Virus record (IMG/VR): IMGVR_UViG_3300028840_003497
Coordinates: 96,001-160,000 of that record
Origin: a virus
DNA: 64,000 nucleotides
Reading direction: 5' to 3' (one strand)
Part shown: positions 3,433 through 12,204 of the stretch, piece after piece
How the letters are laid out: every line of letters starts with the position of its first letter
Numbering within the stretch: position 1 is the stretch's first letter
Notes under the pieces: model-generated
Told to the model about the DNA's origin: nothing
Seen by the model: the letters and a program-made list of their open reading frames with translations, nothing else
Databases searched by the model: none
Program-made: the position numbers and the translations under genes

Positions 3433-4026
3433 TTAAAACCCCACATCTCCATCGGTGCCGAGGATCATCGATTTGTACTCTCCGAACCTCTTGCCAACCT
3501 CATCGACCAACGTCTCCAGCTGCTCCTCAAAGTCAGATCCGTCGGAAAGCCTCCTGGACGCAGAAACGTCCACTTTATTAGAATCCTTCCCCTTCTTTTT
3601 GAATGTTCCACCGTAGTCAAGCCAAATAGCCATCTTAACGCCTAGACCATTTAGGTTGATCGGACTGAACTCGCGGTCCTCTCCTCTTATGAAAGCTTCC
3701 TCCCGATCGAGCACTTCCTCTATGGCAGCCCGCATCCGAGAATAGGCTGCGTCGCGCTCCTCTTGAGATGGTTCACCCTCGATCCCCACTTTGATCCCAA
3801 TTGCAAACCGAGCAAATTCGAAATTCTTCAATGAAATAGTCCGTCCAGCATGAACCATCAAATTCTCTGTATCCTCGTCTGTCTGGATCGCAGGCTTCCC
3901 ATCACTCGTCACATCCTCTTTTACAAGTCTTGCCGGGTTTTTCCCAACAGTGTGAACAAGACCATCTTTACCCTCAACGATTTGTTTTCCCATCTCAGCC
4001 CCCCGCGACATCTTGCCGCGTTTCAT
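3433..4026 (-). CDS. Hypothetical protein
   Basis: 197-aa ORF on the coding strand. Confidence 0.65.
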   Translation of the reverse strand: MKRGKMSRGAEMGKQIVEGKDGLVHTVGKNPARLVKEDVTSDGKPAIQTDEDTENLMVHAGRTISLKNFEFARFAIGIKVGIEGEPSQEERDAAYSRMRAAIEEVLDREEAFIRGEDREFSPINLNGLGVKMAIWLDYGGTFKKKGKDSNKVDVSASRRLSDGSDFEEQLETLVDEVGKRFGEYKSMILGTDGDVGF

Positions 4027-4637: not shown

Positions 4638-7600
4638 TCAAAGCGTCCCCAGTTTCTTATAAAAACGCATCCTCCTCCGGTACTTTGGATTCAATTGAAC
4701 AATCATTTCGTCAACTACATCAACCACAATCGGCTGTGGTTTCTGCTTGCATTTCCCAGCACGCCAGGGACATGCCACCTCGCACTTTCCATCCTGCGGA
4801 AAGCACCACCTCTGAATACGACCCACTATTTGCTCAACATCGCTAATCGGAGTCGCCATCACCAGAACATCGATCGACGGAATGTCGAGGCCCTCCTCAC
4901 AATTATGCACAACAAAACCATCGCATAAAAAGTTAGACTCGCCCTCCATGGTAAAATCATAAACGTCCCTAGATCTAACACTTTCTACAGACACAACACG
5001 AACCCATAAAGCATCAGAATTAGACCACTCAAGCAACATTTCGTTATTGGTTGCATCTGCTACGGATTTCAACAGACTGCGATGGACACCGTTGCGATGA
5101 ATACTTCCACCCACCGGAACAGCCACGCTTCCTATGATATCTTTCTTTCGAAGACCCTGAGAACGCAAAACCCTCATCGCATGAATCCACTGCTCCTCTG
5201 GAATACGCAACCCAACTCCGTCTTCTGCTCTGTCAAGTTTGCACAGATCTGAAAGCATCTTCCTCTTTCGAGGCATCAAATAAGGACCAACAAAATCCAT
5301 CATTTTTTTAATCCAAAACATGCCAGCAACCTTAACAGTCCAATATCTCCTCCTTCTGACAGAATTAGAACGCTTCGCAGATCTAACAAAAGAAATAATC
5401 CCGTGCCCAAGTAACATATGTTGAACCTGATACGCCAATTTCCTACTTGAACTACAGTGAGAAATCTCAAGTTTTTTACGACCAACATTTCCATCGGTAT
5501 CTATAAGGGCCGCAATTAATGCACCGGCACTTTCTCGGTCACAAAACAGCAATCTATCCGACAACTTCTTCTCCCACGCCCGACATCCGTCCAAGCCATG
5601 ACTTTCGGCCAATTTGCGAAACTTAGACTTAACCCCACCACCATTCTTGCCACCCAAAACTACACGATATTTCCCAGGCTCCTTGTCCTTTTCGCATAAC
5701 GCTGCATTATATTCAGAAAGCAAAAACGACACATTATCCACAATATCTTTATCTATATTAAAAAAAGCAGCCTGACCACTAGCCAACTGAGAAGTGTTCC
5801 CATCGCCTATAAAATAACCCATCAATGCAGCCTCATTCACCTCCACATCACTTTTTCCGTCCAGTTGAGCATTGCCCGGAATCATAAGCCAATCCCCAAC
5901 CACAATCTCATCAGATCTCACCCACCCTCGCTGCGACATAACACGATGATCTCCGCTCACAGATAAAGACATCACAGATCTATTATCACCACCTCTCCCG
6001 CATGATATTTTAAGAACATCTTTCACCCCCGTTTTCCATGCCTTAACAATCTTATTCGGAACAAAATCTCCAACACCCTCCCTGTAAGATAACAGCCTAA
6101 CACCCTCCTCCCCGCACAAATCCCTTACGAAGAGAGGTTCGCCAGTATCGGCATCGACAACAATACTATCGCCATCAACACACATCTGTTTTGTAGCAAA
6201 AATAACATTCGCAGATTCGGCATGCGCCAACTCTTCGGACGTCCTGTTTTTGAGCTTCATCTCTCCTTTACGATGCAGAATATTCCCACGCTTCCCACGC
6301 TTCGTTTCCTTCCACACCTCGCCACTGAACCACTGCCCGGTGTAGAAATCGATCCTCGGAACGAAGTCCAAATCGAGCCCGAACAGAATGCCGCCAAGCT
6401 GCTCGGCCATCTCCTTGAGGTGTTCCAGCCGCTCACTGACGACCATGAGCTTCCGACCGGCCTGGACCGCCTTCACCATGTCGTCCACGATGTGCCGCGT
6501 CCTGAATTTGTCGGCAGCGAGCTGGTTAACGATCTGGCCACTGTTTAAATTGTCGATCGATACTTGGTACTTGCCACGGGAGATCCTCTTAAGAGTTGAA
6601 TCCGTGATAACCCTCCGCAGCTTCGGACGCATCATCTTCGTATGTACCGAGTATGTGATCGGAGATATGTGCTTAAAGAAAACGTCCTGCGAGCCGTCCT
6701 TGCGACGTGGAGTCGCCGTAACACCCAATCTCCATGCTGCCTTGAACCGAGGAATGATACCAGCCCACGATCCAGCCCCGACGCGGTGGCAATTATGAAC
6801 GACCGCCCCTGTTTCAAGGATGTAAGAAGGATGCCCAGAAACATTCAGGTTGTAAACACGGACTCGATCTCCCTCAGTACAGATGGCAAATCGCTCAAGA
6901 TCCTCTCGTTTGAGAACCTCAACACTTTCCACCCTAATCCCATTAAGCATCGACCTTTTTTTGCATCCTGCTCCCGACGACTGAGAAGTTTGTGTGACCG
7001 ACCGTCCACCTCCACAGCCACCATCCTCTTCCTGTTCGCCAAGTCCACTTTGTAGGACGCGGGATATCTGTCTGGATTCACGCGCTTGACCATCGTTCTG
7101 ATCGCCACCTCTGGCTTCCACCCTTTCCCGAGAGCATCCAAGAGCATCAATTGAGGAACGGTCATTCCGGTCCCGTTTCCACCCCTCACCGGAGGACGAT
7201 GCCCCATGCTCCTCAAAGAACGAGACACCTTCCTTCTCACCTTTTCTAATGACATCGGATTCGACACTTTCATCCGACGCGAAGCTTCCTCTCGCACCTG
7301 CGGATTCTTCTTGTGCCATTTTAATACAGCGTCGGAAAGCTTCTTCGTAAAAAGGCTGGAATTCTCCGACATCCATTTCCGCTGACAGGATGTCGAACAA
7401 AATCTTGTCCTCTTCTGCTTCGTCTCCACCACCCCGCAGTACTCGCACATCGCCTGCCGCTTGCGCCTCGCCGCTCCAGAACACTTCCTCGAACAATACT
7501 TCCGACCGGCCCTCACAGAATTCGGCTTCCTGCACATCTGACACGACTGAGTTTTTGCACGTCCCATATCTCCGCATCATACCAATGCACTCTGAGTGCG

Positions 7601-8531
7601 TCAATACAGAACACCCAGCAAGATCCTTGGCATGGACCCACCCATTGTTCGTCAAAAATGGATGTTCTGCTGTGCAAATTACCTCTGTACTATCAGCAAA
7701 CGAAACCACCCGTAAATCTGACACATCGATAAGCCTGCTCCCGACGCTTTTAACACGCCCGTGACCAACAGCATTCAGCACCACATCGCCATCACGAATT
7801 TCCTCGATGGGAACTTCTTCATCTGGCGTAAGAACATGAGTCCCCTTCACAAAACATTCGTCCGAGACTATTGTACCAAAGTGAGAGTACATCGATTCTG
7901 GATACTTGAACCCATCATCACGAGATAGAGACTGTAACAACGCGATAACGAAGTCCGGCGGATCCCCATTGCTCTCCAGCTCATCGAACTCGCAGCGCGA
8001 CTGCTTGATGATCCCCACACGCGCGTCCGGCATCATCCCGAGAATTCGATTCTTCCACTGCTGAACCAAGAAGTCTTTATGAACAAGGATCAGCGTTCTC
8101 CGCCCCATTCTCCGAGCAAACTCTAAAGCCATTATTGTCTTACCCGCACCAGGAGGAGCCTGAAGAAGAGCGCCGCCCCACTTCCTGTTCTCCAGGGCAA
8201 GTGCTAGTTCATCTAGAGCATCCGCCTGCTCAGCAAACGGACCCTCGGCTTTGAAATTCGTCTGAAGATCTTGCATGGGCTTGCCGTATGAGACGTCCAG
8301 AACCTCCTCATGATCCCCAGAACGTCGCTCCAGATAGTAGTATCTCGGAACACCGATGAGACCCCTTTCGTCGTCCTCCTCGAACAAAAAAATGGGTTTC
8401 GGATCCTCCTTGGTCTGGATGTCCGTCGTCTTCCGTGGCTGAATCGTCAGTTCCTGCTTGATATTGTCAACCTGATACTTGTTCAACTCATCAAGCTGGA
8501 GCCAAGCCATACCAGAAATAATAACCTTCAA
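4638..8531 (-). CDS. Superfamily 2 (DEAD/DEAH-like) helicase with two inteins
   Basis: Walker A APPGAGKT, DE|CH motif II, TATP motif III, EGLD motif V, QIVGRIQR motif VI. Confidence 0.92.
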   Translation of the reverse strand: MKVIISGMAWLQLDELNKYQVDNIKQELTIQPRKTTDIQTKEDPKPIFLFEEDDERGLIGVPRYYYLERRSGDHEEVLDVSYGKPMQDLQTNFKAEGPFAEQADALDELALALENRKWGGALLQAPPGAGKTIMALEFARRMGRRTLILVHKDFLVQQWKNRILGMMPDARVGIIKQSRCEFDELESNGDPPDFVIALLQSLSRDDGFKYPESMYSHFGTIVSDECFVKGTHVLTPDEEVPIEEIRDGDVVLNAVGHGRVKSVGSRLIDVSDLRVVSFADSTEVICTAEHPFLTNNGWVHAKDLAGCSVLTHSECIGMMRRYGTCKNSVVSDVQEAEFCEGRSEVLFEEVFWSGEAQAAGDVRVLRGGGDEAEEDKILFDILSAEMDVGEFQPFYEEAFRRCIKMAQEESAGARGSFASDESVESDVIRKGEKEGVSFFEEHGASSSGEGWKRDRNDRSSIDALGCSRERVEARGGDQNDGQARESRQISRVLQSGLGEQEEDGGCGGGRSVTQTSQSSGAGCKKRSMLNGIRVESVEVLKREDLERFAICTEGDRVRVYNLNVSGHPSYILETGAVVHNCHRVGAGSWAGIIPRFKAAWRLGVTATPRRKDGSQDVFFKHISPITYSVHTKMMRPKLRRVITDSTLKRISRGKYQVSIDNLNSGQIVNQLAADKFRTRHIVDDMVKAVQAGRKLMVVSERLEHLKEMAEQLGGILFGLDLDFVPRIDFYTGQWFSGEVWKETKRGKRGNILHRKGEMKLKNRTSEELAHAESANVIFATKQMCVDGDSIVVDADTGEPLFVRDLCGEEGVRLLSYREGVGDFVPNKIVKAWKTGVKDVLKISCGRGGDNRSVMSLSVSGDHRVMSQRGWVRSDEIVVGDWLMIPGNAQLDGKSDVEVNEAALMGYFIGDGNTSQLASGQAAFFNIDKDIVDNVSFLLSEYNAALCEKDKEPGKYRVVLGGKNGGGVKSKFRKLAESHGLDGCRAWEKKLSDRLLFCDRESAGALIAALIDTDGNVGRKKLEISHCSSSRKLAYQVQHMLLGHGIISFVRSAKRSNSVRRRRYWTVKVAGMFWIKKMMDFVGPYLMPRKRKMLSDLCKLDRAEDGVGLRIPEEQWIHAMRVLRSQGLRKKDIIGSVAVPVGGSIHRNGVHRSLLKSVADATNNEMLLEWSNSDALWVRVVSVESVRSRDVYDFTMEGESNFLCDGFVVHNCEEGLDIPSIDVLVMATPISDVEQIVGRIQRWCFPQDGKCEVACPWRAGKCKQKPQPIVVDVVDEMIVQLNPKYRRRMRFYKKLGTL
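4902..6182 (-). mobile_element. Intein (427 aa) with LAGLIDADG homing endonuclease
   Basis: Starts CVDGDS, ends VVHN|C; LMGYFIGDG and LIAALIDTDG motifs. Confidence 0.92.
6845..7567 (-). CDS. Zinc-finger plus Vsr/DUF559-like endonuclease nested in the +1 frame of the intein
   Basis: CxxC...CSxxC repeats; YKVDLA...VAVEVDGRSH...QDAKK...LMGLGWKVLRFSN. Confidence 0.85.
   Translation of the reverse strand: MGRAKTQSCQMCRKPNSVRAGRKYCSRKCSGAARRKRQAMCEYCGVVETKQKRTRFCSTSCQRKWMSENSSLFTKKLSDAVLKWHKKNPQVREEASRRMKVSNPMSLEKVRRKVSRSLRSMGHRPPVRGGNGTGMTVPQLMLLDALGKGWKPEVAIRTMVKRVNPDRYPASYKVDLANRKRMVAVEVDGRSHKLLSRREQDAKKGRCLMGLGWKVLRFSNERILSDLPSVLREIESVFTT
7576..7604 (-). promoter_or_regulatory. Internal sigma70-type promoter for the nested endonuclease
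   Basis: TTGACG-N17-TATGAT with extended -10 TG; the ATG starts 9 nt after the -10 box. Confidence 0.75.
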
Positions 8532-8594
8532 CCTTCAACCTCCAACAAACCGGACCGCGCAGTGACCAAAAGGCCACTGTCGATCCTTCATTTT

Positions 8595-9482
8595 CTAAAA
8601 TGGAAGATCTCCGTCATCCTGATTGTTTCCAGGACTGAATCTTCCACTACTATCCTGACCACCACCGTAACCGGCCCCCTCGGACCGAGCACCACCACCT
8701 TTTTGACCACTACCGCCACCCATTCCGACGATCTTTGCCATCGTCTCGTAGGAAAGCGGTCTACAAATGTCGTGCCAGTTGCTAATGGGTTCCACATTCA
8801 AGGCATCCGGATCCGCGCCGTGCTGCTGCAGGAATTTAACATAATCCTCTGGAGCAACCCGATCAATGTACTCCCAGGTCTCACCGATACCGGCCTCTTT
8901 ATCGCCGCTTCGGCTCGTATCCCAAACCGTACCCTCCAGACTCTTGCCACGTCGCTCTGCCTGCCACAACAGTTTCTTAAGGACGCCAGGACTCTTCTTG
9001 CTACCCTTCTTCGCGCCAAGAACAACCCGAGGGAAAGCGTCCTCGTGGATCGTGCCTTCCTTGTCCTCCCAAGTTCGATGATGGAGCTTGATACTTCCAT
9101 CATCCAGATACTCAACCTGACCCATGTCAATACCACTGAACATTCCAATGAACGAAGGCCAGTCGTCTCCACCCTCTTTCATGCAAAGCGGGCATCCTCG
9201 ATCATCAATGTTGTTCTTTGCCAAGCATAACGCGTTCCAGTACCCACAACCACGCCACTTGTATAGCCCGTGCTCGTAGTAAGAGAATGGAGATCCATCC
9301 AAAAACAAAAACCGATGTGTAACCGGCTTGCCAGGGAATAGTGGATTTTCCGAAGCGTCCTGCATCCTGAAGCGAAAACGGTAAAGTCGTTCCTCTTCCG
9401 AGAACTTGCCTCCGCCTTCTCCATCTCCGGTGTCTTCGTCGGGAGGAAGATCCCAACCTCTCTGTCCATAATTGCCAATCAT
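8595..9482 (-). CDS. Single-stranded DNA-binding protein (gp32-like)
   Basis: EH...C...CPLC Zn motif, Gly-rich linker, acidic DDGDLPF tail; located between two helicases. Confidence 0.7.
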   Translation of the reverse strand: MIGNYGQRGWDLPPDEDTGDGEGGGKFSEEERLYRFRFRMQDASENPLFPGKPVTHRFLFLDGSPFSYYEHGLYKWRGCGYWNALCLAKNNIDDRGCPLCMKEGGDDWPSFIGMFSGIDMGQVEYLDDGSIKLHHRTWEDKEGTIHEDAFPRVVLGAKKGSKKSPGVLKKLLWQAERRGKSLEGTVWDTSRSGDKEAGIGETWEYIDRVAPEDYVKFLQQHGADPDALNVEPISNWHDICRPLSYETMAKIVGMGGGSGQKGGGARSEGAGYGGGQDSSGRFSPGNNQDDGDLPF

Positions 9483-9600
9483 GTCTCTCTCCTTCTGTGC
9501 TCTTAGCACTAATTAAAGTCTTACAGATCTCTCTGAGATCAGGCGACTAACCTCCTGCGACTCGCGATAATGCACCATCCGTTGCCGTTTGTCAACAGGA

Positions 9601-12204
9601 TCAGAACGGCACTTCCTCACTATCCTCGTACTCATCCGTGTCGTCAGGGATCTCGTCATATTTCATCGAGTCGAAATCCCAGTCAGACAAAACCACATCT
9701 TTCGAAATCTGTCCTCGTCGGAGCTTGAGAGCTTTGAATTTCAAAACCTTGTCATCCCTGTCATCCTTCGACTGCTCCAACGCAAAGACAGCATGAGCAT
9801 CCTGGCCAATCTCGTCAGCAAGCGCAATCGTTCCCAGACGAGCACCTCCCCCTTTTTTCTCGCTCAACTCCGCTGTTCTGTTCTGTTGGGCAAATCCACA
9901 ACAAGCAAATCCAAGCCGTTTAGCAGCACTCTTCATCCACTCCAGAGCACCAATTGCTCTCTCTCGCCTGTCGCCACTGATTTTCAGATCATAGATAGAG
10001 TCTACGGCGACCATATCTGGCTGACACGCACGGATAGCTGCTTCGATGCCTTTTGGTGAAAGATCATCATCAGAATCCATGATCCACAGGTTCTTCAACG
10101 AGCGACTTTTTACAATAGTATTCTCAAGACTTGGAATAGCGAAATCCGATAACTGCCCATGAATAAGATCCTTGTAACTGACGTTCGCTTCGACCACGAA
10201 GAACCTCTCAGCAATCTCCTCTTTGCTCATCTCCGGAGACACGATGAGCGTACGATAACCTTCGGACCATGCGTGCCGGGCGGCAATAACCGCCACGAAT
10301 GTGTTGTGAACAACCATATCATTTGCCACGAACGCATGCCCATCCATAACCGTTAAATCGAACACCCTTTGGACACCGTCATATTTTATCGATTCAACTC
10401 TATCCCAATGATTAACTGTCAAATGTCTCAAGTGTTCTGCGTCAAACGCATCCAGGAAAGCTTCAAATATTCTTCTACTTACAGTTTTTCGTCTATACAA
10501 CTTATTAACGCTGATTCGAGTTGTCATACCTAAGACTGACGACATCGAATCATACCTAGCAACTCTTGGAGCATCAGGAAAACTATTCACTATTCTAAGC
10601 AACTCTTCCTTCAATACAGGTGTCACCGGTATATTGTCAATATTGGGATTAGTAGCATTCTCAAGCAACCCAACCTTGCTGCTTTTACCACCGACTATCG
10701 GGATATTGTTTTTGAACGCATCGTGGGATGTCGAGTAGATCCTGTACACCCAAGAATCAAACATCTCCCCGTTTAGCCTGACTGCTTTATACCGCACTCT
10801 CCCCTGTATCCCGAAGCGCAAGAACAATCGCTGCAACTGATCAATAAGCGTTTTAGATGCCAATCCCACTTCAGCAGTACAATGATCACGTCTGCCATTC
10901 TTGCCCTTGACAAGTGGAAATGACCCATCACAACTCCAAAATGCCCCGAGAAATTTCGCCAATGACTCATTATCATACTGAAATACTCTGTCTGGAATAG
11001 TCTTATTTTTAGACAATGATCTATCACACCCCCAACTATCCCACTTTTCCCAAAAGCTACGACCATTAATCCTGTAACGACCATCATCCTTTCCACGCGT
11101 CATCGGAACAAGTTCACTACCATATATTCGACAAAACCTTTGCACATGACCTATAATTACATTGTCAGCTTTTGTGAAGGTTGGTAGATCTTGCGTCACC
11201 CCACCATCTGCCAACATCATACCTATCAGCATGGATTCTTCATCTCTTACACTAATAGATTCAGTTGGCTCTGGAATCAATCCAGCAGACTCAACATAAT
11301 CTCCAACAACAAGTTCATCGGTTCTTTTCCATCCGTCAACAGTCATCATCGGATGCTCTGGCGTTTGAGACATCTCACGCCCACTATACAATCCAACCCT
11401 TAAACATTCCTTTGTTCCCATATCCAACCACGCATCTGGCGTAACAGGAACAATAGAGCCATCTGATTTTCTGGTAAGCACACAATCTTTGTCCTTTACA
11501 ATCTGTCCAATCGTCTTATACTTCCCCGTAGTTGAAATGTAGGATAATGTATCCATGTGTAGGCATTTGCCAACTCCGGGGCGGGCCACAAACATGGTCA
11601 GTGTCTTTGGCCACATCCCAGCTGTCATATGATCCAGTGTCGGCCATGGAAGCGGCACCCCACGATACCCTCCGGCAACCTTCTTGTACATATCCATTAC
11701 GCCGTCACCAAGAGCGGACATGGATTTTGGCATGCGCGTGCGCGCTAAATATTGGGAAGCCTCCACAATGGCCGTGACACCATTGGAAATCTCTTCCGGA
11801 TTCTCCTTTGTAAACGCGCTGGAAACCACATCCTGAGACACGTAGATGACATGACGAATCGCAGCAGCCTCACGAACAATTCCAGCGTAATGATCAACAT
11901 TAGCCACCGTGGCAACTGCATCAGTAAGATTCGCCAGAGCTATCCCCCCCCCGATCTTCTCTAGGTCGCCATTCTTTTTCAGGCGCTCCCCGAGAGTAAC
12001 GTGATCGACAGGCATGCCATCTGCATCCAAGGATGTCATCGCCTTGAAGATTCTGCGATGTGCTTCTACATAAAAATCCGCCTGCGTAATAACACCCTCG
12101 ATAACCCGAAGTGAATTATTATCCAGCAATATGGACCCCAGAACAGACACCTCGGCTTCATAATTGTAAGGCGGCACTCTCCCTCCAACATCAACCTCTT
12201 TCAA
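9601..12204 (-). CDS. dnaB: Replicative DNA helicase with intein
   Basis: N-terminal PPYNYEAEVSVLGSIL...DFYVEAHRRIF; ARPGVGK|T Walker A; SPEMS; IGQDA. Confidence 0.93.
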   Translation of the reverse strand: MKEVDVGGRVPPYNYEAEVSVLGSILLDNNSLRVIEGVITQADFYVEAHRRIFKAMTSLDADGMPVDHVTLGERLKKNGDLEKIGGGIALANLTDAVATVANVDHYAGIVREAAAIRHVIYVSQDVVSSAFTKENPEEISNGVTAIVEASQYLARTRMPKSMSALGDGVMDMYKKVAGGYRGVPLPWPTLDHMTAGMWPKTLTMFVARPGVGKCLHMDTLSYISTTGKYKTIGQIVKDKDCVLTRKSDGSIVPVTPDAWLDMGTKECLRVGLYSGREMSQTPEHPMMTVDGWKRTDELVVGDYVESAGLIPEPTESISVRDEESMLIGMMLADGGVTQDLPTFTKADNVIIGHVQRFCRIYGSELVPMTRGKDDGRYRINGRSFWEKWDSWGCDRSLSKNKTIPDRVFQYDNESLAKFLGAFWSCDGSFPLVKGKNGRRDHCTAEVGLASKTLIDQLQRLFLRFGIQGRVRYKAVRLNGEMFDSWVYRIYSTSHDAFKNNIPIVGGKSSKVGLLENATNPNIDNIPVTPVLKEELLRIVNSFPDAPRVARYDSMSSVLGMTTRISVNKLYRRKTVSRRIFEAFLDAFDAEHLRHLTVNHWDRVESIKYDGVQRVFDLTVMDGHAFVANDMVVHNTFVAVIAARHAWSEGYRTLIVSPEMSKEEIAERFFVVEANVSYKDLIHGQLSDFAIPSLENTIVKSRSLKNLWIMDSDDDLSPKGIEAAIRACQPDMVAVDSIYDLKISGDRRERAIGALEWMKSAAKRLGFACCGFAQQNRTAELSEKKGGGARLGTIALADEIGQDAHAVFALEQSKDDRDDKVLKFKALKLRRGQISKDVVLSDWDFDSMKYDEIPDDTDEYEDSEEVPF
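10303..11565 (-). mobile_element. Intein (421 aa) with LAGLIDADG endonuclease in the DnaB P-loop
   Basis: Starts CLHMDT, TPEHP block B, IGMMLADG/LGAFWSCDG, ends VVHN|T. Confidence 0.92.

Follow-up and report, generated by a model that had tools for sequence, protein, structure and literature searches.

The 64,000-nt stretch of DNA analyzed here (referred to throughout as the window) spans positions 96,001 to 160,000 of IMG/VR virus record IMGVR_UViG_3300028840_003497, a viral sequence of 176,267 bp with direct terminal repeats. It contains an open reading frame (ORF) of 1297 codons (positions 4638..8531) for the precursor of an SF2 (ResIII/DExH) helicase (Pfam ResIII, E 8.9e-18), which is interrupted by two inteins; unless stated otherwise, all features described below lie on the minus strand. 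The first of these inteins, termed intein 1 (355 aa; helicase residues 226-580; 6792..7856), is overlapped in the +1 frame by a predicted homing endonuclease gene, and this arrangement is the subject of the present report. The helicase frame is continuous over its entire length, i.e. the host gene is not broken into two ORFs as fractured genes are. Splicing of both inteins would yield a helicase of 515 aa, and an intein-free ortholog (locus L025; related loci are designated by L numbers) has 516 aa. The latter reads SDEAHRVGAGSWA and is colinear across the intein 1 site, with no insert.

Intein 1 lies within helicase motif II (SDE|C...HN|CHRV). An earlier note on this DNA, made from the sequence alone, had claimed that this DECH-motif intein has normal splicing blocks, and all of the expected elements were indeed identified: Cys1, the block B motif T-A-E-H (T62-A-E-H65), the terminal H354-N355 pair, a +1 Cys (codon at 6789-6791, directly after the C-terminal lobe) and a match to Pfam Hint_2 (28.9 bits, cut-off 28.4). 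The Intein_splicing profile also matches at both ends (25.9 bits alone, 73.7 bits for the whole protein). In an alignment of four inteins all of the splicing residues are invariant, the invariant positions being C1, T62 and H65 in the N-terminal lobe, and V334, N336, L337, Y345, H354 and N355 in the C-terminal lobe. The N-terminal splicing lobe (intein residues 1-96; 7569..7856), which contains the Hint_2 match and block B T-A-E-H at 7662-7673, was modeled with a pLDDT score (predicted local distance difference test) of 87-95, and the C-terminal lobe (residues 305-355; 6792..6944), comprising blocks F and G and the terminal H-N, with a score of 89-93. Judging from these features, intein 1, inserted in the DExH box of an SF2 helicase from a phage, is of class 1 and contiguous, and is predicted to splice.

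The two lobes are joined by a linker (intein residues 97-304; 6945..7568) that is rich in E, G, S and R and free of stop codons. In the intein frame this middle part gave no match to Pfam or PHROG families. A structural model of the intein frame, based on four related inteins, reached a pLDDT of ~90 for residues 1-95 and 305-355, and of 20-35 for residues 100-303, so that the linker is predicted to be disordered.

The same DNA read in the +1 frame contains an ORF of 240 aa, named P0001 (6845..7567), with its own ATG, located 3 codons downstream of a TGA in the same frame, and its own TGA stop codon (6847-6845). Contrary to the earlier note, which placed the end of this ORF just before block F, the stop codon is situated within that block, across Leu337/Asn338 of V-Y-N-L-N-V. 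P0001 matches Pfam DUF559 (E 1.8e-12, 47.6 bits, cut-off 20.6). The catalytic core (nuclease residues 171-236; 6860..7057) contains D175, E186, D188, H192, D201 and K204; among 50 aligned sequences D175, E186, H192 and D201 never vary and D188 and K204 almost never, the protein from the window having all six. The N-terminal part carries two zinc-ribbon-like CxxC...CxxxC motifs (C9-C29 and C41-C61; 7385..7543), the second of which is invariant in the family. They match FCS/MYM-type profiles only weakly (zf-FCS_1, E 0.004, under the cut-off). The earlier claim of an ORF encoding zinc fingers and a Vsr/DUF559-type nuclease was therefore upheld with regard to the ORF and the nuclease, and for the zinc fingers it meets weak profile matches.

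Comparison of the nuclease family profile with solved structures identified the DUF559 protein 3hrl (4e-11) and the catalytic domain of I-Bth0305I (3r3p, 3e-5). The AlphaFold2 model of P0001 has a mean pLDDT of 93, and a Foldseek search with this model placed 3r3p, 3hrl and Vsr (1cw0) at the top of the ranking (for 3r3p, probability 1.00 and TM 0.65 on target); the fold assignment rests on this ranking and the profile search taken together. The sole PHROG match, to an “HNH endonuclease” family, covers residues 4-92, which correspond to the zinc-finger part; the HNH reading was dropped and the catalytic part assigned to DUF559. On the strength of the DUF559 match, the catalytic residues and the profile and model matches to structures, P0001 is identified as a predicted zinc-finger plus Vsr/EDxHD-type endonuclease, for which site-specific cleavage is expected. 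An exhaustive phmmer search with P0001 yielded 1940 cluster representatives at E<=1e-3, nearly all of 160-330 aa. No match was obtained when the region was compared by blastn with 50,697 phage records, and relatives are visible at the protein level only.

Both frames are open over 723 nt. The significance of this overlap was assessed by shuffling synonymous codons while keeping the nuclease protein and the codon usage fixed (5000 shuffles). The intein frame contains 0 stops compared to a mean of 12.35 expected, and none of the 5000 shuffled sequences was free of stops. The third frame, with 15 stops (11.6 expected), shows no stop avoidance. The same test applied to eleven other loci gave 0 stops in the intein frame in each case, compared to 4.7-14.6 expected. 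The intein frame is thus strongly kept free of stops, beyond chance. Near the 3′ end of the nuclease gene, about 100 nt (6845..6944) encode two folded segments at once, namely the final ~33 nuclease residues and the strands that open the C-terminal splicing lobe, both confidently folded in the respective models.

The selection acting on the two frames is most clearly visible in close pairs of Vibrio phage loci. Between L004 and L018, the differences in the overlap at intein-frame codon positions 1/2/3 number 32/3/0 (of 260), whereas the flanks show 19/9/71 and 59/35/197. Since position 1 of the intein frame is the wobble position of the nuclease, this distribution shows purifying selection on the nuclease protein. 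A coarser signal of the same kind is present when the window is compared with L013 and L014; with L013 the counts are 122/99/88 in the overlap and 134/98/184 and 98/82/145 in the flanks. Translated in the nuclease frame, the overlaps of the window and L013 show 51% amino acid identity; the value falls to 35% for the intein frame, which is no better conserved than the non-coding third frame (31%). These comparisons across homologs, a check proposed in the earlier note, indicate that the nuclease frame encodes a real protein family under purifying selection, and that the intein frame is relaxed. A middle part devoid of motifs, more than 700 nt open in both frames and an intein frame serving as a passive stop-free linker had likewise been claimed from the sequence alone. 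The first two claims agree with the database searches and with the shuffling test, and the third is matched by the predicted disorder, the stop avoidance and an identity near that of the third frame; a frame that is disordered yet free of stops fits what is predicted for a passive linker.

The distribution of this arrangement was examined in phage genomes and metagenomes. A tblastn search with P0001 found 40 phage records, in each of which the match lies under a coding sequence annotated as “helicase” or similar. The nuclease is in the +1 frame relative to an annotated, fully open coding sequence in CP-T1, 159E43-1b, Pseudomonas MR14, 1.088.O, Corynebacterium phi673, 104E43.1, 1.027.O and K391; cultured carriers thus include phages of Vibrio (CP-T1 and Nahant phages), Pseudomonas and Corynebacterium, and the offset is always +1. 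The same layout occurs in the metagenomic helicase loci L005, L013, L014, L031 and L032. Among the best 80 of 277 confirmed relatives in IMG/VR, 75 have the nuclease in the +1 frame relative to an open frame ending in xxHN[C/S/T] just past the nuclease stop, with junctions that nearly always follow the pattern hhhDE|C...N|CH or an SNF2-like variant. The +1 layout is real and common in phages, and within this nuclease subfamily it predominates in viral contigs (75/80 loci). Lack of conservation of the +1 ORF had been named in the earlier note as a ground for rejecting its reading; the ORF was found with the same offset across many independent genomes, which excludes compensating indel errors.

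Inteins of this type that contain a +1 Vsr-like gene were also observed in a terminase-like gene adjoining a portal gene (L033:1075-3348) and in a clamp-loader-like gene (L035:1810-3927; IIMDE|CHALT). The first 95 intein residues of L033 are among the most similar to those of the window (global score of 143, compared to 2-31 for unrelated inteins), a similarity which suggests extein switching. Two loci depart from the usual layout. In L006 (3800-4621) a large methylase/SNF2-type gene has a single in-frame stop (3991-3993) directly after its N-terminal intein lobe, and in L015 (420-2890) the N-extein, N-terminal lobe and nuclease are fused in one frame, with the C-terminal lobe and C-extein in the -1 frame. 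These loci may be intermediates towards split inteins, or errors. A free-standing relative of the nuclease is present in L034. Locus L007, in which DUF559 is an in-frame C-terminal domain of a helicase without an intein, was set aside as a different architecture.

Comparison of related phages revealed several allele states of the insertion site. Within a group of ~60-kb Vibrio phages the full element is present in L004, L018 and L019, the site is empty in L020 (DEAHHC) and L021 (DECHHV), and phage K453 (L023:1604-3724) carries at the same DE|CH site a 146-aa mini-intein without the nuclease; all three states therefore coexist in one group. The empty-site Vibrio phages include 141O35-1 and 1.285.O. 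Between L004 and L018 the exteins have diverged by 47-49% at wobble positions, compared to 4.6% for the N-terminal lobe of the intein and 12.3% for the nuclease gene, a pattern that bears the signature of a recent transfer of the intein and nuclease between diverged alleles. Among the relatives of the window phage itself, L025 has an empty site, and in a sister phage with a 79% identical N-extein this helicase site is occupied by a different intein (Ser1, 442 aa; L024:3909-5234). A +1-frame ORF of L024 (4042-5142) matches LAGLIDADG_2 (Pfam E 1.8e-21), and the intein frame has 0 stops compared to 14.2 expected. We infer that the dual-coding element may have arisen when a free-standing gene invaded a mini-intein, which would fit the free-standing relative L034, the mini-intein of L023 and the split or fused arrangements of L006 and L015.

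Analysis of the region upstream of the nuclease ATG identified a putative sigma-70-like promoter, TTGACG-17-TATGAT with a TG extension (7576..7604), which ends 8 nt before the start codon. Similar sites with the same position and spacing are found in L013 (TTGACC-17-TATAGT) and L014 (TTGACT-17-TACCAT), and beneath the -10 hexamer these loci have different intein-frame residues. The promoter-like site, which is claimed for the closest clade of the window only, would fit a nearly leaderless nuclease transcript. In more distant members a Shine-Dalgarno (SD)-like GAGG or GGAGG sequence is located 6-9 nt upstream of the ATG. Separate expression of the nuclease is thus suggested by an ATG placed just past a stop codon and by the promoter-like site, and the spacing of the SD-like sequence in the window is weak.

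Considering these data, it is highly probable that intein 1 is a dual-coding class-1 intein, composed of a helicase-frame filler and a complete +1 homing endonuclease gene. In the helicase frame, the middle would be translated as a disordered filler without sequence constraint other than the avoidance of stops, and this filler would keep both splicing lobes in one chain, so that the intein can excise. In the +1 frame, the central ~720 nt would constitute a complete gene for a zinc-finger and DUF559, I-Bth0305I-like homing endonuclease with its own ATG and stop codon. The nuclease would be synthesized separately, and its nearly leaderless mRNA would most likely start from the internal promoter-like site. 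The protein would presumably cut intein-less helicase alleles near the SDE|CHR codons, and repair would copy the intein together with the nuclease gene into the cut allele, resulting in homing.

Several observations weigh against this interpretation. The promoter-like site was not found at the matching position in L031, L032, L033, L035 or L005, and its -35 hexamer falls on Val-Leu-Thr codons that are conserved in the intein. The GGAG sequence preceding the nuclease gene of the window is only 2 nt from the ATG, compared to 5-8 nt for the genes of this phage. The Foldseek E-values are modest (5e-3 to 6e-2, none <=0.001), and the intein-frame model was built on 4 sequences only, so that its low pLDDT in the middle part is partly an effect of alignment depth. 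Finally, the closest relatives are 45-51% identical in the nuclease, and direct evidence of selection on the copy of the window is confined to the coarser codon-phase signal.

Since the source record is a metagenome-derived viral contig, the nuclease might truly be an in-frame domain of the intein, displaced by two compensating indels in the contig. This explanation is refuted in practice: the +1 offset recurs in at least 12 independently sequenced loci, cultured phages among them, as well as in the IMG/VR loci counted above; the stop 3 codons upstream of the nuclease ATG and the nuclease stop within block F leave no simple junctions to mend; and the freedom of the intein frame from stops is far beyond chance. 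An inert remnant of a once functional nuclease gene, its frames open through recent ancestry only, would agree with the homing-cycle model, which predicts decay of the endonuclease after fixation, and with the poor SD spacing and the lack of a close relative by which recent selection on the window copy could be gauged. We nevertheless regard a relic as very unlikely, since decay would introduce stops into the frame of the gene itself, and the ORF is of full length, retains every invariant catalytic and zinc-binding residue and yields a model of high confidence (pLDDT 93). Furthermore, the codon-phase signal persists even at 45-51% identity, and close pairs within this family clearly show purifying selection.

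Production of the nuclease through a programmed +1 frameshift of ribosomes translating the helicase frame, which would give a fusion of the N-extein, the N-terminal intein lobe (IntN) and the nuclease, is judged quite unlikely. The single frame shared by these three parts in L015, the weak SD spacing in the window and its Arg codons CGG-AGA just upstream of the ATG (in principle a candidate type of codon for a +1 shift) speak for it. However, in the window, L013, CP-T1 and the Vibrio lentus phages a nuclease-frame stop lies 1-3 codons upstream of the ATG, so that a shift site would scarcely fit; no shared slippery motif was seen, and the ATG is conserved, with promoter-like or SD-like signals upstream. 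There is also a low probability that the +1 nuclease is separately expressed with a main role other than homing, e.g. the exclusion or degradation of competing phage genomes, or action at another target locus. The free-standing family member L034 is compatible with such a role, but the nuclease and intein stay together in both inheritance and transfer, as a single unit whose divergence is far below that of the exteins; almost all close relatives occur in inteins at one kind of site (hhhDE|CH), and empty and occupied alleles coexist within one phage group.

The interpretation of intein 1 as a dual-coding homing element can be extended into a more comprehensive proposal, which we consider possible but rather doubtful as a whole. 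It holds that (a) the intein and the +1 Vsr-like gene form one ancient, monophyletic dual-coding module; (b) this module would be specialized for Walker-B/DExH-box DNA (hhhDE|CH) and would move among P-loop NTPase genes that are not related to each other (those of several helicase families, SNF2-type enzymes, terminase and clamp loader); (c) the ~100 nt shared by the nuclease C-terminus and the C-terminal splicing lobe might act as a lock that makes deletion of the nuclease costly and so slows the decay phase of the homing cycle; and (d) in the clade of the window the nuclease would be expressed from an internal promoter as a leaderless mRNA.

The remaining inteins of the window have a conventional organization. 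Helicase intein 2 (427 aa; 4902-6182) and an intein in DnaB (421 aa; 10303-11565) each contain an in-frame LAGLIDADG_3 domain, in agreement with the in-frame endonucleases expected for them from the sequence. The site of helicase intein 2 is empty in L013, L024 and L025. In addition, a 306-codon open frame on the plus strand (8310-9230) is antisense to a 304-codon ORF on the minus strand (8595-9509), which may be due to chance.

Gorbalenya (1998) was the first to propose endonuclease genes that lie out of frame or antisense inside inteins. Inteins with overlapping endonuclease genes are already known as a kind, described in 2025-2026, and the sense-strand +1 Vsr-like case adds to them. In actinophages, antisense LAGLIDADG, antisense Vsr-like and frame-3 endonuclease VII-like genes have been described (Gosselin, Arsenault, Gogarten et al., bioRxiv 10.1101/2025.01.02.630785). 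These share with intein 1 a contiguous intein with an unstructured in-frame middle, a complete overlapping endonuclease ORF and a proposed invasion by a free-standing gene. However, their Vsr-like genes are antisense and their same-strand gene is endonuclease VII-like, whereas the Vsr-like gene described here is in the sense-strand +1 frame; moreover, the actinophage host genes encode DNA polymerase, minor capsid protein, terminase and thymidylate synthase, in contrast to helicase motif II in mostly non-actinophages. A dnaX intein of cyanobacteria, whose LAGLIDADG endonuclease lies in a +2 ORF (Phillips, DeSimone, Gogarten, bioRxiv 10.64898/2026.09.14.751524), resembles the present case in its frame-dependent selection (low omega in the endonuclease frame and a relaxed intein frame), its disordered linker and the coexistence of empty, mini and full alleles. 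It differs in its nuclease type (LAGLIDADG as opposed to Vsr/EDxHD), frame offset and host gene, and in residing in bacterial chromosomes rather than phages.

In fractured genes (Dassa et al. 2009, PMC2677866), split inteins flank a free-standing Vsr-like or GIY-YIG gene. They likewise have the same nuclease family between intein lobes in phage replication genes, and the nuclease gene extends at its 3′ end into the sequence encoding the C-terminal part of the intein (by 6-69 bp, compared to ~100 nt here). Fractured genes consist of two ORFs and require trans-splicing, whereas in the present case the host frame runs free of stops through the nuclease and the intein is in one piece. The gene of I-Bth0305I, the founding EDxHD homing endonuclease, lies within a recA group I intron (Taylor et al. 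2011, PMC3239194; PDB 3R3P). P0001 resembles this enzyme in catalytic profile and predicted fold, and both are phage-borne and tied to an intervening sequence; unlike I-Bth0305I, P0001 overlaps an intein, and its N-terminal DNA-binding part (two zinc-ribbon motifs and a helical region) is without a match among solved structures. The out-of-frame HNH insertions of ShiLan type known from DNA methylases of phages (Arsenault et al. 2025, PMC11855218) also place a hidden endonuclease ORF over a stop-free in-frame insertion in a phage gene, but they have no splicing domains, whereas the insertion described here is a bona fide intein. In our literature search, neither a sense-strand +1 Vsr-like gene in a contiguous intein nor these helicase hosts were found.

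Vsr/EDxHD endonucleases, known from split inteins and from antisense ORFs of actinophages, thus also ride contiguous inteins as sense-strand +1 genes. The nuclease family is large and mostly unannotated. Gene callers report one long “helicase” and miss the nuclease (CP-T1, the Nahant phages and GenBank records) or make the opposite error, calling the nuclease and losing the surrounding helicase (L013:2938-4720 and L014:3073-4747). The availability of cultured Vibrio phages with empty, mini and full alleles of one gene makes homing, splicing through a filler of ~200 residues and expression of the overlapping gene directly testable. The family provides a clean natural case of long dual coding, in which one of the two frames is bound only to avoid stops.

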